From a virus (Duplodnaviria; Caudoviricetes), in the IMG/VR virus record IMGVR_UViG_3300012983_000037, positions 1-64,000 of that record: a stretch of DNA of 64,000 nt. One strand, given 5' to 3'. Under the pieces are notes generated by a model. The model was not told where the DNA came from. It did no database searches and worked only from the letters and a program-made list of their open reading frames with translations. Position 1 is the first letter of the stretch. The number at the start of each line of letters is the position of its first letter. The position numbers and the translations under genes are program-made. This document shows, piece by piece, positions 1,274 to 20,021 of this stretch.

Positions 1274-2197
1274 ATGATTATGACTTTAGAAGAAGTAGTA
1301 TTAAAGCTAAAGGAGCATCCTATTTATTTAAAAAATGGGAAAGGACTTCTTAGTAGAAAGTTCAAATGCTCTCAAGAAACAATTGTAGAAGCTAGGAGAA
1401 TAGTTAGAGGTATTAAAAACTCTAACACTCCTAAGATACTTATTTTTGATTTAGAGACTGCTCCAATGTCAGCATATGTTTGGGGAAGGTGGAATCAGAA
1501 TGTATCATTAGATGCAACTATATCAGAATGGTTTATACTTTGCTGGTCTGCAAAATGGCTATATTCTGATTACATTATGTCAGATAAACTAACCTCTGAA
1601 GAGTCTTTAAATGAGGATGATTCTAGAATTATTAAATCACTTTGGTCTCTTGTAGATGAGGCAGATATTATTATTGCTCACAATGCTAAAAGAGCCGATG
1701 TTAAATGGATGAATACAAGATTCATACTTAATGGACTCATCCCCCCAAAACCATACTATATTATAGACACTTTAGATGTAGCAAAGAAAGAGTTTAAGTT
1801 CAGCTCTAATAAACTTGATGCATTGGCAGGCTATTTTGGAATAGAGCATAAGTTAGGTACTGACTTTAACCTGTGGAAAAAGTGTTTAGATGGAAATGAG
1901 GAGGCTCTAAACTATATGTGTGAGTACAACAAGAAGGATGTAGAAATTCTTGAAGATGTTTATTTACATCTTAGACCTTGGATAAAAAACCATCCTAATT
2001 TGGGAAATATATCAGAACTATCGGGTACAAGATGCACACATTGTAACTCTAAAAATATTAATATGATTAATGAGAAATTTTACTTTACCTCAGTAGGTAA
2101 ATATAATCTTTATAGATGTAAAGATTGCGGTGGAATATCCAGAGGTAGAGATAATCTAAATACTAGTAAAACTAAATTAGCACCAGTATTAAAGTGA
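1274..2197 (+). CDS. DnaQ/RNase H-like DEDD 3'-5' exonuclease with C-terminal Zn ribbon
   Basis: ExoI IFDLET, ExoII AHNAKRAD, IDTL, ExoIII YNKKDV; CTHC...CKDC. Confidence 0.85.
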   Translation: MIMTLEEVVLKLKEHPIYLKNGKGLLSRKFKCSQETIVEARRIVRGIKNSNTPKILIFDLETAPMSAYVWGRWNQNVSLDATISEWFILCWSAKWLYSDYIMSDKLTSEESLNEDDSRIIKSLWSLVDEADIIIAHNAKRADVKWMNTRFILNGLIPPKPYYIIDTLDVAKKEFKFSSNKLDALAGYFGIEHKLGTDFNLWKKCLDGNEEALNYMCEYNKKDVEILEDVYLHLRPWIKNHPNLGNISELSGTRCTHCNSKNINMINEKFYFTSVGKYNLYRCKDCGGISRGRDNLNTSKTKLAPVLK

Positions 2198-2529
2198 AAG
2201 TAATATTTAATAATCTTATTCCATTTCCTGGATTTGCTGCTATAAATTTATTTGGAGTAATGTTTGTTAGAAATGGAGTATATAGGAATAATAAGATTCC
2301 TAAAAAGACCTATACACATGAGTCTATACATACTGCTCAAATGAAAGAGATGCTTTATATATTTTTTTATATATGGTACTTCTTAGAGTGGTTAGTTCAA
2401 TTATGTTTACATGGAAAGTATGCTTATTATTGGATATCTTTTGAGAGAGAAGCATATGATAATGAGAGAAATGAAAACTATTTAAGTAATAGAAAACATT
2501 TTAATTGGTTTGGATATTATGGAAAATAA
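2194..2529 (+). CDS. small zincin-like metallopeptidase
   Basis: HExxH (HESIH) plus a downstream FEREAY third-ligand motif. Confidence 0.7.
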   Translation: MKVIFNNLIPFPGFAAINLFGVMFVRNGVYRNNKIPKKTYTHESIHTAQMKEMLYIFFYIWYFLEWLVQLCLHGKYAYYWISFEREAYDNERNENYLSNRKHFNWFGYYGK

Positions 2530-2645
2530 GAACAAATATGTAATATCAGGTAGAGAATTAATATCAAAAATAGGAACACTACCTATAGAAAATACTAATG
2601 CTACTATGATTGTGTGGGATTATCATAATGAAAAAGGGATAAATA

Positions 2646-4514
2646 ATGGAAAACAAAGATAGATGGTCATCCCTCTCTATATCAGAGAAGGATGCTTTAA
2701 TTAAATTATATGTGAGTAATGGTATTACTTCTTTAGATGCTATAAAGAAGGATTATAATAGTTTTAGTGGGGGGAGCAACTTGCATAATAAGGAGTCTAA
2801 CATACCACAAAATACAGATGATAATACACCTACTGTTTTAGAAGATTCTGCAGAAGGAGATAATAGTTCTACTAGAAATAAAGTGCAGACACCTAGAGTT
2901 GATGCTTCAATTAAGCGTGCAACAAAGATAATTGGAAATAGTATTAAACTAGCCTTAGGAGAATACCTCTCCTCATTGAAACAACAATCTCTACAAGAGT
3001 CAGAAGCGAATAAGTTTGGTCCTGGTGGACCTGTAAATAATACTAAATGGAAAGCTTTAGATAATGTTGATTTTAAAGCTATTCCTGATTCTACTTATAC
3101 TAGAGAAAAAACAGGTATAGGAAGTATTGAGTTTTTTCATAAAGATAATCCTGTGGGAATAACTTATCCTAATGGATATTTTAGAGAACACCCTTCTCCT
3201 GGGGAGAATGTAATATTATATGATCCTAAAACTAATGACGATCAAGATATTAGGTTAGACGCATTACATGTAATGCCTCAAGATCCTGTATACGCTGATT
3301 TACTTGCTATGTATAGATTGGCTGCTAACGATGGAGATGTTGCTCATCAAGCCGATAGAGATTACAAATATTATGTAGATACATACGGTATGGATAAAGC
3401 ATTAAAAACCTTTGATGCAAAAGATCCTCAGCAACTTTGGGAGAGGTTGTTTGATAATGCAGCAGACGGCTTATTGAGAAATATGCTTATAGAAGGCACT
3501 CCTGAATATATAGAAAGTAAAAGATATTATCCTAATAAACAGCAACTTAGAGAATGGAATAGTCATCTAGTACCGTATATAGATGAGATTCAAAAGTATC
3601 TTGAAACAGGTGAGAGGCCTTGGTATATGCTTGAACCTGCTGTAGTAACAGCAGAAGCAAAAAGTGAAGGAGGGAAAATAAATACTTTTGCAACAGGAGG
3701 AGATAAAGACAGTGCAGAAGGAGAAGTTTGGAAAAGGGAATTTAAAGATTTACCTCAAGGATTTAAGCAAGCTATATTACAACTAGTAGAAGAACTAAAC
3801 TATAATGTTGAGGATGCTGAAGAATTATTTAATTCAGGAGCATTAAGGGCTCCGCTAGATGCTAAATTTAGAAATACACAGTCTGGTAGGGTTAGGCAGA
3901 ATGATTCTCCTACATCTGATAGGAGCACTGCTTTAGAGGATAGAATGAATACCTTTATATATAATAGATCAGATGCTGTAAGGCCTAATATGCAATATGC
4001 GATTCCATATATTGAGGATTTAGAAATTAAAGTTCCAGGAGTAGGAAGAACTACTACTAATGCACTAGACTCTTTGGCTAAATATGCATATGAAGCACAA
4101 ATTCCTTTAGAAGAAGCTTTAGGATTAGCAGCTCAAGAAACTGCATTAGGAGCAATACCACTCATCAATTATAAAGATATTCCAAAAAATGCAACTGAAG
4201 AGGAAAAGCAAGAAGTAAAAGAGCACAATAGGGCTTTAGGTAATTCCTCTTACTTTAGAAACTACGGTATTATACCTGCAGAGAGTATGGTTAGAGACTT
4301 TAGATATAATATAGTAGAGGATCCTGTTTCTAGAGGTGTCCCTCCTTTATTACATGCATTTGAGTACTGGAAAGAAGGAAACTACAATAGAGGGGATCCT
4401 AGCCATAATGAAGATGTTAAAAGGAAAGGCAGAGAGATTATGAGTACTAAAGTTATTCAAGATTGGGTTAAAGATAGTGAATTTGCACAAAAAGTAATAA
4501 ATTTATTTAAATAA
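2646..4514 (+). CDS. modular protein, candidate virion cargo, with a C-terminal lysozyme/lytic-transglycosylase-like domain
   Basis: Segments are separated by xxGG motifs. The C-terminal ALGLAAQETALG...YNRG resembles SLT motifs. Confidence 0.5.
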   Translation: MENKDRWSSLSISEKDALIKLYVSNGITSLDAIKKDYNSFSGGSNLHNKESNIPQNTDDNTPTVLEDSAEGDNSSTRNKVQTPRVDASIKRATKIIGNSIKLALGEYLSSLKQQSLQESEANKFGPGGPVNNTKWKALDNVDFKAIPDSTYTREKTGIGSIEFFHKDNPVGITYPNGYFREHPSPGENVILYDPKTNDDQDIRLDALHVMPQDPVYADLLAMYRLAANDGDVAHQADRDYKYYVDTYGMDKALKTFDAKDPQQLWERLFDNAADGLLRNMLIEGTPEYIESKRYYPNKQQLREWNSHLVPYIDEIQKYLETGERPWYMLEPAVVTAEAKSEGGKINTFATGGDKDSAEGEVWKREFKDLPQGFKQAILQLVEELNYNVEDAEELFNSGALRAPLDAKFRNTQSGRVRQNDSPTSDRSTALEDRMNTFIYNRSDAVRPNMQYAIPYIEDLEIKVPGVGRTTTNALDSLAKYAYEAQIPLEEALGLAAQETALGAIPLINYKDIPKNATEEEKQEVKEHNRALGNSSYFRNYGIIPAESMVRDFRYNIVEDPVSRGVPPLLHAFEYWKEGNYNRGDPSHNEDVKRKGREIMSTKVIQDWVKDSEFAQKVINLFK

Positions 4515-4515
4515 A

Positions 4516-4547
4516 TTTGGTAATTTAAATTTTTTTACATATCTTTG
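4516..4547 (+). promoter_or_regulatory. Bacteroidota promoter
   Basis: TTTG 4516-4519, 20 nt spacer, TATCTTTG 4540-4547. Confidence 0.85.
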
Positions 4548-4568
4548 CAAAGTAAAATAAGAGTAGAT

Positions 4569-4802
4569 ATGAATACTAAGAGATGGATTTCGCTTGGAAT
4601 AGCAGTTCTTATTGTTATTCTAGCAATTGTTTTAACTAATGTACTTCCTATTTGGATTACATTCTATGCATGTCTAGCATTTGTTGCTGGATTTGTAGCA
4701 GGTTATTTATTTAAGAAGCCTGAAGTAATTACTAAGACTGTTGAAAAGATAGTTGAGGTAACAAAGCCTATAAAGATTAAGAAGGCTAAGAAGGTAGAAT
4801 AA
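4569..4802 (+). CDS. small two-helix membrane protein with basic tail (holin-like topology)
   Basis: Start moved to ATG 4569 because the track's TTG start lies inside the promoter. Two hydrophobic segments. Confidence 0.7.
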   Translation: MNTKRWISLGIAVLIVILAIVLTNVLPIWITFYACLAFVAGFVAGYLFKKPEVITKTVEKIVEVTKPIKIKKAKKVE

Positions 4803-4811
4803 TCTACCTAT

Positions 4812-4883
4812 GGGGATATAGCACAGTGGTAGTGCAGTAGACTGTTAATCTATTGGTCGATGGTTCGAATCCATCTATCCCCG
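4812..4883 (+). tRNA. tRNA-Asn(GTT)
   Basis: Acceptor GGGGATA/TATCCCC, anticodon arm GTAGA-CTGTTAA-TCTAT, T-loop TTCGAAT. Confidence 0.93.
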
Positions 4884-4886
4884 CGA

Positions 4887-5206
4887 TTAATGAATTACGA
4901 GCGAGAGCTACAGGCCGTAGAAAGCAATGAGTGTAATATCTATAGTAAAAGACTTGTGGGCGTACTACTCTAAAGACAATAAACGTTAGAACGTTGGCTG
5001 TGTCTAGTAATTCATTGAGGTCTAATGCCGCTTGCATCCGGCTTTGTATGTTGCAAACGTCTTTTCTACCGACGGTGGTGTAGAATGCTCTATCACAAAC
5101 GATAGTGACGCTTTGTAAGTTTGTCAAGATGGGAGAAATTTAAAAACGATTGGTGGGTATACACACACAATTCATACTGAAGTAGGAGGTCAAACCTTAG
5201 TCAGTA
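4887..5206 (+). ncRNA. structured non-coding tract between tRNA-Asn and tRNA-Ala
   Basis: A 12-bp closing stem (4887-4898/5007-5018), a three-way junction at about 5058-5110, and a three-hairpin motif at 5112-5206 that is repeated at 7723-7819. Confidence 0.6.
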
Positions 5207-5210
5207 ATTT

Positions 5211-5285
5211 GGGGTCATCATATAAGGGCTATTATGATAGATTTGCATTCTATTCATCGGAGTTCGAATCTCCGTGGCTCCACCA
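5211..5285 (+). tRNA. tRNA-Ala(TGC)
   Basis: GGGGTCA/TGGCTCC with G3:U70, ATAGA-TTTGCAT-TCTAT, encoded CCA. Confidence 0.92.
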
Positions 5286-5385
5286 ATAAAACAAAGACTA
5301 AGCAAAGATCGCAACTTTGTTACGGAGAGTATGCCTTCTCTCCGTCTTTGTTTAGTATTAATAAGGCATTTAAAAAGGTAATAAT

Positions 5386-6105
5386 ATGAATATAAAAAAT
5401 TTAACAAAAGAAGAGTTAATATAGCTTTTCAAAGACAAAGAATGTAATCTAAAAAGAATTGAAGCAGATTTCGGATTAGGTAAAAATGCTGCTGGACGAC
5501 TACTAACTAAAATGGGTATAGATTATAATAAAATAAAATCAGAATGGTTAGATAGTTTGAAAAAAGCCTACGAAACTAATCCTAAATTATGTAAATATTG
5601 TGGAAACCCTATACTTTATGAAGATAGAAATCGAAAAGATTTTTGTAATCAATCTTGTGCAGCATCCTATAATAACACATTAAGAGGTGGTAAAATTAGA
5701 GAACACCTTACACATTGTTTAAATTGCGGAAAAGAACTTTCTAAATCCGCTATTAAATATTGTGATAATAAATGCCGAATTGAATTCAAATACAAGATGT
5801 ACATAGAAAGATGGAAACAAGGTTTAGAAAACGGGGTAACAGGTAAATATGATATAAGCTCTCATATTAGAAAGTACTTATTCATCAAATATAACAACTC
5901 TTGCCAAATATGTGGTTGGAATAAAACTAATCCTAAATCTGGAAAAGTTCCTTTATAGATACATCATATAGATGGGAATTGCCTTAACAATAAAGAGGAA
6001 AATCTTCAATTACTTTGTCCAAATTGTCATTCTTTGACAGATACATTTGGAAATTTAAATGACTCTAGTAGTCGTATTTATAGAAAACAAAAACAAAATA
6101 TATAA
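5386..6105 (+). CDS. HNH homing endonuclease with Zn fingers, interrupted by two in-frame TAG codons (5422-5424, 5956-5958); 239 aa if TAG is read as sense, otherwise a pseudogene
   Basis: A single frame runs from ATG 5386 to TAA 6105: MNIKNLTKEELI*LFKD...CQICGW...VPL*IHHIDGNCLNNKEENLQLLCPNCHS. The HNH core lies after the second TAG. Confidence 0.88.
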
Positions 6106-6117
6106 AAATTAACAATT

Positions 6118-6384
6118 ATGTGGTATTGGATTACTGCGCTTATATTCTTAGCGCTAGAAATTGCAGCAGTTGCTGTACTTGTAGGAATAAATCATAGAAG
6201 AGACAATAGAGGTCTGGATTTAGACGAAATATTCGAAAACTTTGGTCCAGTAGCAGTAGTTCTGTTGTTAGGTGCTATTGCATGGCCGTTACTAACACTA
6301 GTCATTCTTTTTGTAATTCTTTACAATATATTCTTAAAGGATGCCTTTAATAAAATAGTTGATTGGATAGACGAACGTCTATGA
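6118..6384 (+). CDS. hypothetical membrane protein
   Basis: 88 aa, two hydrophobic helices, AWP motif. Confidence 0.75.
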   Translation: MWYWITALIFLALEIAAVAVLVGINHRRDNRGLDLDEIFENFGPVAVVLLLGAIAWPLLTLVILFVILYNIFLKDAFNKIVDWIDERL

Positions 6385-7139
6385 TAGCTATACAAGGACA
6401 TCTAGATAGAGGAAATGAAGTAATTCAAATTCTTAAAAATTTAGGTGGTATAAATCGAATGAATCATAGTGGTCGTTACACTAACTACTTTTATTATATT
6501 AGTGGTGATGACAACACTATTGCATGGACTTGCATTCAACCACAGCATTTAGGTGTTTATACGTTAGAAGAGTTTGAGAAAAAATTCCCTCTTAAGATTG
6601 GTGAAACAGTAATCACCACACTAAATCATGTTGGAACAATAATAGGCATAACAAATGGGAAGTACAAAGTTCTGTTTAGAGAAGACAGTGCCTTAATTGC
6701 TCCACGTAGATTAAAATCTTATAAAGAAATGGAAAGAAATGTAACGCTTACTCTTGACAAAGCAAAGGAGTGGTATAACAAAGGTGGAGAACTCAGAGAG
6801 ATTGCTCTACAAGCTTTTACCAAAGAAGAATTAAATCCACTTCCTAGAAATTGGGAAGAGTACTGTAAACACACCTCAACACTTACAACCTCATTCAGCA
6901 GTTGTCCTAGATATGATGCTTTTGTCAAACTTGAACACCTGAGAGATTGTTGGTTAGATGGATGGAAACCTAAATGGGATGTTTCTCAAAAATGGTGTAT
7001 TCGTTTGTATAAGAACGAATTACATGTGGGATTATGCACAGATATATCTAGATTTCTTACATTCCCAACTAGAGAAATGGCTGAAGAGTTCCTTAAGTGT
7101 TTCAGGAATTTGATTGAATTAGCTAAAGATTTAATCTAA
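6381..7139 (+). CDS. hypothetical phage protein
   Basis: Likely start at ATG 6381 (ATGA overlap with the upstream stop); long ORF. Confidence 0.75.
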   Translation: MIAIQGHLDRGNEVIQILKNLGGINRMNHSGRYTNYFYYISGDDNTIAWTCIQPQHLGVYTLEEFEKKFPLKIGETVITTLNHVGTIIGITNGKYKVLFREDSALIAPRRLKSYKEMERNVTLTLDKAKEWYNKGGELREIALQAFTKEELNPLPRNWEEYCKHTSTLTTSFSSCPRYDAFVKLEHLRDCWLDGWKPKWDVSQKWCIRLYKNELHVGLCTDISRFLTFPTREMAEEFLKCFRNLIELAKDLI

Positions 7140-7492
7140 TGTGTCTAGTAACTAGTCAATCTGAACCACTAATCGCTAAAAAGGATATAGTGGTATATAA
7201 ATGTCTAATTAAACAAGCAACTACCTTAGTAAGTCCTTACATAGGGTTTGTATATAAACTTCGTACTTTATACGAAGCTTCTTTAGGAGTATCAGTACAC
7301 AATACAATCACTGTAGTAGAAGAAGGTTTACACGCTTATTACGATAAAAAGCGCGCCTTAAATAAATGGTCTAATGAAGTGTATAAATGTATTGTACCTA
7401 AAGGAAGTAAGTATTACTTGTCTAAAAAAGACGGTGAAATCGTATCAGACAAGTTAATCATAAAAAGAAAGCTCTTGTTTAATAGATTCTAA
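7139..7492 (+). CDS. hypothetical phage protein
   Basis: TAATG coupling; MCL...KDIVVYK...GLHAY...CIVPKGSKYY pattern. Confidence 0.75.
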   Translation: MCLVTSQSEPLIAKKDIVVYKCLIKQATTLVSPYIGFVYKLRTLYEASLGVSVHNTITVVEEGLHAYYDKKRALNKWSNEVYKCIVPKGSKYYLSKKDGEIVSDKLIIKRKLLFNRF

Positions 7493-18133: not shown

Positions 18134-18925
18134 ATGGCTAAAGAAATTGATAAGATTATTCAATCAAAAACAGCTCCTAAGAGTAATAATGTACTTTGGG
18201 ATGATGGCGAGAATTTAAAGATTAATAGAAATGGTAAGTGGGAGAGTACGGGTAGTGGAACCTCAGTACCTCAAGAAGTATTAGACACTATTGATTTTGG
18301 ATACTATACTTTTGCAAGTGGAAATATTGTAGCTAATTGGGGACCTTTTACTATTAAAGAGGGTGAGACTATTAAAGTAGATACAAATACATGGGCTGAA
18401 CCTGAATATATAAAAATTCATGATTATAGTGGAGTAGGTTATACAGAAAAAGGTACTATATTTGGACTTAACAAACGCCCAGATGGGACTTTAGGAGTTA
18501 TTGGTATAAATATTAAATTACAAGGTACTACTTTAGAAATATATAATAACAGTAATTTAGGAACAGTAACTATATCATTTTTAGCTTATAAAAAGCAAGT
18601 AATTAGTAATACTACGCATAGTATTTCTAGTGATTTACTCTCAGACTTAGAATTAAGGTCAGATATAGAAATAATACCAGGAGAGCACCCATATGAATTT
18701 TGGAAATTAATAGGAAAAAATGTTAATATATTTGATCGTCATAATTTTATATCCTATGGAGGTTTTTGTATTAATGTTAAAGAGGGATTTCACGATAACT
18801 ACAACGTGGTTTTCACAATAAATTTAGTAGATTTTCCAGATGTTAAAGTAATAAAAGTATACTTAGATAATAATTATTTAGTACAAAGTGTATCTTCAGA
18901 AGATAAAAAAATAACTGTTGTTTAA
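18134..18925 (+). CDS. putative head fibre/decoration protein
   Basis: N-terminal SKTAP...VLW...NGKW anchor-like segment, GSG linker and beta-rich body; located after the portal gene. Confidence 0.45.
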   Translation: MAKEIDKIIQSKTAPKSNNVLWDDGENLKINRNGKWESTGSGTSVPQEVLDTIDFGYYTFASGNIVANWGPFTIKEGETIKVDTNTWAEPEYIKIHDYSGVGYTEKGTIFGLNKRPDGTLGVIGINIKLQGTTLEIYNNSNLGTVTISFLAYKKQVISNTTHSISSDLLSDLELRSDIEIIPGEHPYEFWKLIGKNVNIFDRHNFISYGGFCINVKEGFHDNYNVVFTINLVDFPDVKVIKVYLDNNYLVQSVSSEDKKITVV

Positions 18926-18935
18926 TGATTTATTT

Positions 18936-19760
18936 ATGATATCAGTAATAATGTCTGCATATAATGCATCAAGCACTATCCTTAATGCTATAAATTCTGT
19001 ATTAGGTCAAACATATCAAGATATACAGCTAATTGTGATTAATGACTGTAGTACAGATAATACTCAATCAATAGTAAGTAATATTAATGATCCAAGAATC
19101 CTACTTATAAATAATGAGTATAATATGGGATGTGGAATGAGTAGAAGAATTGGACTATCTAAAGCTACAGGAGAATACATAACCTTTTTAGATTCTGATG
19201 ATTTTTATTCAAAAAACCATTTAGAAACTCTTATAAATGCTGCTAATGCCTTTCCTGATGCAGACATTATTCATTCTGGATTTAATATTGTATATAATAC
19301 TTATATAGACCCTAAAGTTCCTAGATTTAGAATAGAAACTGGTAATGATACTTTACATCCAAACGAAGTAGATACTAAAAGGTTTTTATGGCAAAATCTA
19401 ATTAAGAGGGAACTATTTGATAAAGTAGAATACAGTCATAGAAGATATATAGAAGATACTCCTACTTTGTTTAAATTGCTTTATTTAGCTAATAAAGTAA
19501 TTACTATAGAGCACTCTGGATATAATTGGGTACAAAGAGATGATTCTCTAACTCATACTAGTAGTATGGTGAAAAATGCTGTATATAGATGTTTGGCTGC
19601 AAAAGACATTATTGAATTCTTAAAAACTGAAAATAAAGGTTTTAGTTATAATGATCTTTATGACTGTCTGGAATGTCTAAAACCATATTTACAAACTTCT
19701 GAGATAAATAATTACCAAGAAGAGTTAGATGAATTAAAGCTCTTTCTAAAAGGACTATAG
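18936..19760 (+). CDS. family 2 glycosyltransferase (GT-A fold)
   Basis: ISVIMSAYN, INDCSTD, GEYITFLDSDD, IED; start moved to ATG 18936. Confidence 0.92.
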   Translation: MISVIMSAYNASSTILNAINSVLGQTYQDIQLIVINDCSTDNTQSIVSNINDPRILLINNEYNMGCGMSRRIGLSKATGEYITFLDSDDFYSKNHLETLINAANAFPDADIIHSGFNIVYNTYIDPKVPRFRIETGNDTLHPNEVDTKRFLWQNLIKRELFDKVEYSHRRYIEDTPTLFKLLYLANKVITIEHSGYNWVQRDDSLTHTSSMVKNAVYRCLAAKDIIEFLKTENKGFSYNDLYDCLECLKPYLQTSEINNYQEELDELKLFLKGL

Positions 19761-19775
19761 AATCTTAAATATACA

Positions 19776-20021
19776 ATGCTTAAAAAACTACTACAAACAG
19801 ATAAACTAACACATAATCTACTAAACTACTCAATACTATTAACACTAGCAATACTAGTAAACTATTGGGTAGGTTTAGTAGTATGTATTACATTAAGCTG
19901 TCTCAAAGAATTCCTTTGGGATAAGAAATTAAAGAAAGGTACTTATGAAGTAGCAGATTTAATTGCTAATGGATTAGGTATACTTGAAGCCACAATAATA
20001 TATTTAATATATATTTTATAA
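19776..20021 (+). CDS. small membrane protein (VanZ/YfiM-like DKxxH...KE...D pattern)
   Basis: DKLTH, KEFLWD and DLIANGLG between hydrophobic helices. Confidence 0.6.
   Translation: MLKKLLQTDKLTHNLLNYSILLTLAILVNYWVGLVVCITLSCLKEFLWDKKLKKGTYEVADLIANGLGILEATIIYLIYIL

Follow-up and report, generated by a model that had tools for sequence, protein, structure and literature searches.

The window, the 64,000-nucleotide stretch analysed here, carries at 5386-6105 a candidate HNH homing-endonuclease gene written in code 15 (TAG=Gln), within a phage genome that reads TAG as stop. We consider it probable that this gene belongs to a cassette of a TAG=Gln lineage now resident in a standard-code phage, where it would stay silent unless a suppressor were supplied in trans. 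The gene and the elements within it are the following.

5386-6105, plus strand: candidate HNH homing-endonuclease gene, 239 codons with TAG=Gln
5422-5424, plus strand: in-frame TAG at codon 13, on a Gln column, context KEELI*LFKD
5512-5958, plus strand: sole sizeable code-11 open reading frame, M44-L190, 148 aa, comprising the zinc-finger part without the catalytic His-Asn-His
5956-5958, plus strand: in-frame TAG at codon 191, on a nearly invariant Gln column, context VPL*IHHIDG

In agreement with an earlier sequence-only reading of this DNA, the gene forms a single frame without frameshifts, with 239 sense codons followed by TAA and two internal stops, both TAG; a codon count likewise bears out that its other Gln codons are CAA in six of six cases and never CAG. 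That reading had also held that Gln fits both TAG sites and had proposed a check of the aligned residues, and in the homologue alignment both TAGs indeed fall on Gln columns of the family (Gln accounts for 8 of the 239 residues of the protein). The codon-13 column holds TAG in the window, L111, L002, L005, L087, L085 and L088 and CAA in L089, and the codon-191 column holds TAG, CAG (L123) or, in more distant copies, CAA. Pyrrolysine or selenocysteine at the TAGs was ruled out, as the homologues have Gln at both columns. The intact HNH core described earlier was recovered as a PF01844 (HNH) profile match at residues 173-216, which spans the second TAG and scores 23.8 bits against a Pfam cut-off of 21.4, together with catalytic and ligand residues that are invariant or nearly so among homologues (H193, H194, N206 and H215; C173, C176, C211 and C214). 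PHROG 1271 'HNH endonuclease' matches the read-through protein at E = 3e-28. In an AlphaFold model (29 homologues, mean pLDDT 87), strands 191-194 and 207-210 and helix 212-216 make up the catalytic core, in which residue 191 is the first residue of beta-strand 191-194 of the beta-beta-alpha-metal fold. Foldseek gives HNH nucleases in all its top rows, though at weak E-values (0.014 or higher), and a PDB sequence search with the HNH protein gave no match. By its profile match, His-Asn-His residues, CxxC...CxxC zinc ligands and modelled two-strand and helix core, the predicted product is an HNH endonuclease. The M44-L190 fragment keeps two treble-clef-like zinc fingers and is annotated as a gene in L005 and L111.

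The same arrangement of TAG codons recurs in other samples. The closest homologue (95% identical) is found on three contigs from three samples, where it is encoded only with TAG=Gln; a fourth contig, from another sample, has it annotated as a 148-aa fragment between the TAGs, and a fifth, L111, is 98.6% identical. In all five of these further assemblies, from four samples, codons 13 and 191 are TAG and the gene is otherwise free of defects. At least three other phage backgrounds (L111, L002-4 and L005) share this pair of TAGs, and the nearest copies, those of L111, L002 and L005, are 93-99% identical to the HNH gene of the window. Across the family, TAG interchanges with CAA or CAG at columns 13, 57, 89, 131, 135, 138, 174, 191, 208, 226 and 235, a TAG in one copy being mostly CAA or CAG in others at the same column. 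The TAG-bearing columns are 13 and 89 in L085 and 13 and 174 in L087, those of L089 and G2 differ again, and in L088 TAG makes up 11 of 15 Gln-type codons. The Gln codon pool of the HNH gene (6 CAA, 0 CAG and 2 TAG) compares with 482 CAA and 357 CAG in the host genome and with 441 CAA, 124 CAG and 818 TAG in the late genes of G2, where TAG is the main Gln codon. The alignment of the TAGs with Gln, their interchange with CAA and CAG and the conservation of the frame downstream together indicate that the HNH gene is written in code 15.

Substitution patterns, which the sequence-only reading had also proposed to check after each TAG, give a dN/dS of 0.16 overall, both for the window against L002 and for the window against L005, and reveal strong constraint also after the second TAG. 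Over codons 192-239 the window and L005 differ by five synonymous and no non-synonymous changes (at ~26 synonymous and 118 non-synonymous sites), a split that simple arithmetic gives a chance of ~2e-4 under neutrality. These values point to purifying selection on the HNH gene, including the part past the second TAG that lies inside the catalytic fold.

The surrounding genome is of another kind. The complete virus record, of which the window makes up the first 64 kb, spans 99,869 bp and has direct terminal repeats; its major capsid protein is 52-53% identical to those of cr112_1, IAS virus and PhiCrAssBcn phages, and PHROG matches cover the terminase, portal and major head genes. Its related capsid, portal and terminase, ~100-kb genome and terminal repeats place the host among Crassvirales-like phages. 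Codes 11, 15 and 4 give coding densities of 0.885, 0.896 and 0.891, respectively, and TAG terminates eight genuine genes, one of them a 1680-aa gene in which only four codons would be added by read-through. The earlier view that the window treats TAG as stop is upheld by these eight genes and by the want of a density gain under code 15, and the TAG-T-ATG junctions on which it had relied are present at all three places, 10285, 21794 and, on the minus strand, 63367. The HNH gene is the sole host gene that needs TAG read-through. At 18915-20021, a 280-aa frame ends in TAG and is followed in frame by one of 87 codons; these are probably two adjacent genes, although nowhere else in the genome, apart from the HNH gene, would reading through a TAG fuse open reading frames of some size. 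The search of the full genome for a CUA tRNA that had been proposed yielded 12 tRNAs and no CUA tRNA among them (ARAGORN on the whole genome; Rfam on the window and on 84-99.9 kb), and neither an RF-1 or GlnRS-type domain nor a second HNH gene was found in the host genome. Relaxed ARAGORN settings returned hundreds of matches inside genes, which we discarded as noise. A tRNA with an 8-nt anticodon loop UUUUGGGU lies outside the window at L091:7124-7198 (genome 91124-91198, minus strand; Rfam 53 bits); ARAGORN assigns it the 4-base anticodon UUGG, and it is no CUA suppressor. With no large density gain and no CUA tRNA or other code-switch factor, the host genome is not TAG-recoded.

The HNH gene lies within a tRNA island whose relationships differ from those of the backbone. 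The island and the elements around the gene are the following.

4809-8126, plus strand: ~3.3-kb tRNA-island module, 86-92% identical by blastn to the L111, L112, L114 and L123 types
4812-4884, plus strand: tRNA-Asn(GUU), left edge of the island (ARAGORN; Rfam 77.8 bits)
5099-5214, plus strand: conserved spacer/RNA-motif segment upstream of tRNA-Ala, left homology arm, present in filled and empty alleles
5211-5285, plus strand: variant tRNA-Ala(UGC), linked to the cassette, with G3:U70 and an encoded CCA (49.2 bits; 100% identical to L111)
5286-5385, plus strand: spacer with a terminator-like hairpin at 5322-5345 and then a T-rich tail (100% identical to L111)
6118-6384, plus strand: 88-aa gene downstream of the HNH gene, right homology arm (97.8% identical to L111)

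Outside 4700-8200 the window has no DNA or protein homology to the phages that share the island, and the tetranucleotide composition of the island is nearer to the L111 type than that of any backbone chunk. Comparison of the islands distinguishes three alleles. In the filled allele (window, L111 and L002-L005) the variant tRNA-Ala is followed by the 100-nt spacer and the HNH gene; in the empty allele (L112 and L114-L118) a canonical tRNA-Ala, very unlike the variant, is followed after ~30 nt by the 88-aa gene; and a short-form allele (L113, L123 and L124) holds an N-terminally shortened HNH gene of 134 aa with its own TAG (CCQ-TAG-CQ; L113:554-958 and about 4560-4965 in L123), in which the equivalent of codon 191 is TAG in L113 and CAG in L123 and L124. 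The 5099-5214 segment is 85.6% identical by blastn in L114-L117, and the edge of the empty-site replacement falls at 6108/6109. A contig of run X1 (depth 37) matches 4809-5150 and 6109-7635, with 157 other letters in place of 5151-6108. We therefore read 5211-6108 (~900 bp) as a predicted mobile cassette, consisting of the variant tRNA-Ala, the 100-nt spacer and the HNH gene, that replaces the canonical tRNA-Ala. A tRNA-Ala(UGC) lies just upstream of the HNH gene, inside a tRNA array, in every close relative, and deposited phages likewise have members of the HNH family next to tRNA genes.

Identity between islands is highest across the cassette and falls off at its flanks. The cassettes of the window and L111 are 98.6-100% identical, against 75-84% for the left spacer and 82% for the 258-aa gene to the right; L002 and L005 are 94% identical across the cassette and ~71% in its flanks; and the cassettes of the window and L002 share 94% DNA identity, the next gene only 37% protein identity, the 88-aa gene having 34-37% amino-acid identity to its L002 and L005 counterparts. 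The island of the window is a mosaic in its own right, with 65-100% identity to L111 from block to block. This pattern points to a recent transfer of the cassette with co-converted markers, and the presence or absence of the cassette, taken with its flanks, is the pattern of intronless homing by a predicted free-standing homing endonuclease gene. The resident tRNA-Ala gene is likely to be the target site of the nuclease.

Several other observations concern these islands. A second, diverged copy of the 5099-5214 segment lies at 7718-7815, directly upstream of tRNA-Glu as the first is of tRNA-Ala, and L114 matches both (85.6% and 74.3%, respectively). The counterpart of the 258-aa gene of the window (6363-7139) is split at L123:5264-6023, and also in L124 and L125, into open reading frames of 99 and 136 aa in different frames. 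L002 has three more HNH-type genes (4597-5226, 8659-9123 and 11870-12397) within 8 kb of one tRNA array; of these, one matches the C-terminal half of the window HNH protein at 59% identity. The 176-kb phage-like contigs with L085 and L086 carry a 667-aa TonB-dependent receptor gene with Plug and beta-barrel domains (L085:18646-20649 and L086:12712-14715).

To place the gene among its relatives, we took four other IMG/VR records with HNH relatives that contain in-frame TAG.

G2, 186.6 kb: coding density 0.50 under code 11 and 0.88 under code 15, recoding only in the 70-160 kb late block; CUA tRNA
G3, 102-kb fragment: coding density 0.53 under code 11 and 0.91 under code 15; no suppressor tRNA found
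G4, 166.8 kb: coding density 0.69 under code 11 and 0.89 under code 15; CUA tRNA
G5, 89-kb fragment: coding density 0.56 under code 11 and 0.70 under code 15; CUA and UCA tRNAs

All four are TAG-recoded and three of the four have a CUA tRNA, and the window genome is the exception among the five whole records examined. In a further relative, L089 (181 kb), a CUA tRNA lies 3.3 kb upstream of the HNH gene and a neighbouring 401-aa gene contains eight internal TAG codons. The nearest copies (93-99% identical) have other surroundings: ordinary genes end in TAG in the L111, L002 and L005 backgrounds, the GATase genes of L111 and L123 end in TAG, and no CUA tRNA was seen in the examined parts of the L111, L002 and L005 backgrounds. 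Because the nearest backgrounds end genes in TAG and their examined parts showed no CUA tRNA, the most recent donor may also have been a phage with the standard code. The earlier proposal that the gene came from a code-15 phage thus stands for the gene lineage, with its recoded relatives and their CUA tRNAs, but not for the last step of transfer. In IMG/VR and the JGI metagenomes there was no HNH copy closer than ~69%, and no close relative of the backbone gene of the window or of the L111-type GATase gene.

The calling of a contig's genes in code 15 was rejected as evidence of recoding, since short contigs flip on the HNH gene alone, and the seemingly in-frame TAGs next to the HNH gene in L002 proved to be true stops over-read by the code-15 gene caller. 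For annotation this means that code-11 pipelines split the HNH gene and that automatic code-15 calling of short contigs over-extends its neighbours. TGA recoding is also represented in this neighbourhood. G1, a relative at 65-71% nucleotide identity, is TGA-recoded; G001 (L130-L138, 175.8 kb) is a complete TGA-recoded phage (coding density 0.61 under code 11 and 0.89 under code 4; UCA tRNA) that carries Peptidase_C26, ligase and GATase genes like those of L002 and L111; and several HNH relatives in records similar to G001 (L018, L019, L021, L030 and L036-L041) have TGA or TAA breaks when only TAG is read through. G2 gives a faint hint that internal TAGs might be special to nucleases in code-11-compatible early regions: its HNH gene has four TAGs, but a few other early genes also carry some.

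If the gene were an ordinary pseudogene, that is, a code-11 HNH gene with two nonsense mutations or sequencing errors, its two stops and the lack of a suppressor in the genome would need no further account. We find this scarcely credible, because nonsense mutation, pseudogene decay and assembly error are each rejected by the shared TAGs, the Gln-column interchange and the low dN/dS. Two independent nonsense mutations, the alternative weighed in the sequence-only reading, do not explain identical TAGs in five other assemblies from four samples, and the same sharing answers that reading's concern that the TAGs might be assembly errors; both TAGs, moreover, lie on Gln columns, relatives carry TAG at other Gln columns, no CAG is left in the gene as a one-step source, and the frame has no frameshift and a dN/dS of 0.16. 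An assembly chimera, in which the island at 4809-8126 derives from an L111-type phage, possibly a recoded one, and was joined to the backbone at tRNA genes, bears on the host instead, since with an island wrongly joined the HNH gene would not belong to a standard-code genome. In favour of a chimera, the island is bounded on both sides by tRNA genes, homology to L111-type phages is confined to it, its composition is nearer to the L111 type, and reads of the sequencing runs examined scarcely cover the backbone at 3500-4500. An independent contig, L151, does join backbone 1284-4838 to the tRNA-Asn at 97% identity, but it ends inside that tRNA, and beyond this point no independent contig connects backbone and island. 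Against a chimera, the distant backbone relative L152 also has a tRNA array after the same gene, the island is a distinct mosaic and not a copy of any contig seen, and the genome in the record is closed, has direct terminal repeats and is of a length usual for crAss phages. At 73-76 nt, a tRNA gene is only a short repeat by the standards of modern assemblers. On this evidence we judge a chimera distinctly unlikely.

In the reading we prefer, that of a TAG=Gln cassette in a standard-code phage, the HNH lineage would evolve under TAG=Gln in large TAG-recoded gut phages and keep its two TAGs, and, in the tRNA island of a crAss-like phage with the standard code, the cassette would have taken the place of the canonical tRNA-Ala. 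As this host has no amber-suppressor tRNA or code-switching gene, only truncated products are expected, and translation by the host alone would give a 12-residue peptide from M1 and perhaps the 148-aa fragment without the catalytic motif. Full nuclease would be expected only with a CUA tRNA in trans, from a co-infecting TAG-recoded phage, or through rare read-through. In homing, the nuclease would then cleave the canonical tRNA-Ala allele carried by a co-infecting phage and the cassette would be copied into it, and co-infection is also when the target allele would be present. Metatranscriptome X15 has no cover over the HNH gene, which carries no weight as evidence of silence. What speaks against this reading is that the continued spread of a silent nuclease would be hard to explain if the last donor were a standard-code phage; both the strength of purifying selection and the 99% identity to L111 imply that the nuclease was recently active somewhere. 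A more specific proposal, that the TAGs act as a cross-code switch, with the cassette silent and harmless in standard-code phages and nuclease made only with a CUA tRNA from a co-infecting recoded phage, the sole circumstance in which a target allele would be at hand, we regard as possible but on the doubtful side.

Activity could also arise without a foreign suppressor. Under adaptive amber gating, low-level read-through, for example by a near-cognate phage tRNA-Gln(UUG), would yield trace amounts of a toxic nuclease, enough for homing at little self-damage. The window genome carries a tRNA-Gln(UUG) of this kind, and in L002 and L005 one adjoins the cassette; the two-TAG cassette is maintained, at a dN/dS of 0.16, across four or more backgrounds, several of them with genes that end in TAG; and tight down-regulation of tRNA-cluster homing nucleases has been discussed for T4 SegB and the T5 enzymes (PMC2330249). 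Two serial TAGs, however, would multiply two small read-through rates, the TAGs drift among Gln columns like neutral synonymous changes and do not keep to fixed gating sites, and the other TAG-bearing copies with whole genomes lie in recoded phages in four of four cases, so that we hold gating to be unlikely. It is very improbable that the working product is instead the zinc-finger fragment M44-L190, binding without cutting and thereby shielding the site or acting as a regulator. This fragment is the sole long code-11 open reading frame and keeps the two treble-clef-like zinc fingers, but nothing marks M44 as a start codon, and a product that ends at residue 190 fails to explain why codons 192-239 are the most constrained (0-1 non-synonymous against 3-5 synonymous changes).

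Published work covers phage TAG recoding, homing nucleases of tRNA clusters and stop-laden nucleases inside recoded phages. T4 SegB and T5 F-TflI, II and IV are free-standing homing endonucleases in phage tRNA gene clusters (PMC2330249). As with SegB, the nuclease gene described here lies between tRNA genes, and related phages have the tRNA region without it; SegB's flanking tRNA markers are co-inherited with the nuclease gene and its recognition site contains a conserved tRNA element (PMC2330249), to which the difference between the tRNA-Ala of the filled and empty alleles is a parallel. SegB, however, is a GIY-YIG enzyme of a standard-code phage with normal translation, whereas the gene of the window is predicted to encode an HNH protein with extra zinc fingers and needs TAG=Gln. 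Gut phages that reassign TAG to Gln (code 15), crAss-like phages among them, have been described (Borges et al., bioRxiv 10.1101/2021.08.26.457843; Peters et al., PMC9523058; zeta crAss-like phages, PMC12386605), and the HNH gene shares with them the reassignment, the animal-gut habitat and the link to a CUA tRNA, having relatives in G2, G3, G4, G5 and L089. Unlike those phages, the window genome gains no density under code 15, ends real genes in TAG and has no suppressor.

Two further systems offer partial precedents. In the TGA-recoded Agate phages a group I intron endonuclease is enriched in in-frame TGA, which Borges et al. (10.1101/2021.08.26.457843) propose to delay the nuclease until the code switch. 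The gene of the window resembles it as a putative homing nuclease of an early region with in-frame recoded stops, but the Agate phage makes its own suppressor, whereas here any switch would come from another phage. T4 mobE drives trans-homing of the defunct I-TevIII (PMC2790892) and so sets a precedent for outside help in spreading a nuclease gene that cannot be translated; the helper there is a neighbouring nuclease of the same genome, whereas the window genome has one HNH gene only. Our literature search found no report of a homing cassette written with TAG=Gln in a complete standard-code genome without a suppressor.

Alternative codes are usually discussed as a means for a phage to time its own late genes or as obstacles to the exchange of genes. 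In the present case a mobile gene written in one code resides in a genome that reads another, and the evidence for its recent transfer and for purifying selection suggests that the code difference has not stopped the flow of DNA. What the difference may do instead is make expression of the gene conditional on a second phage.
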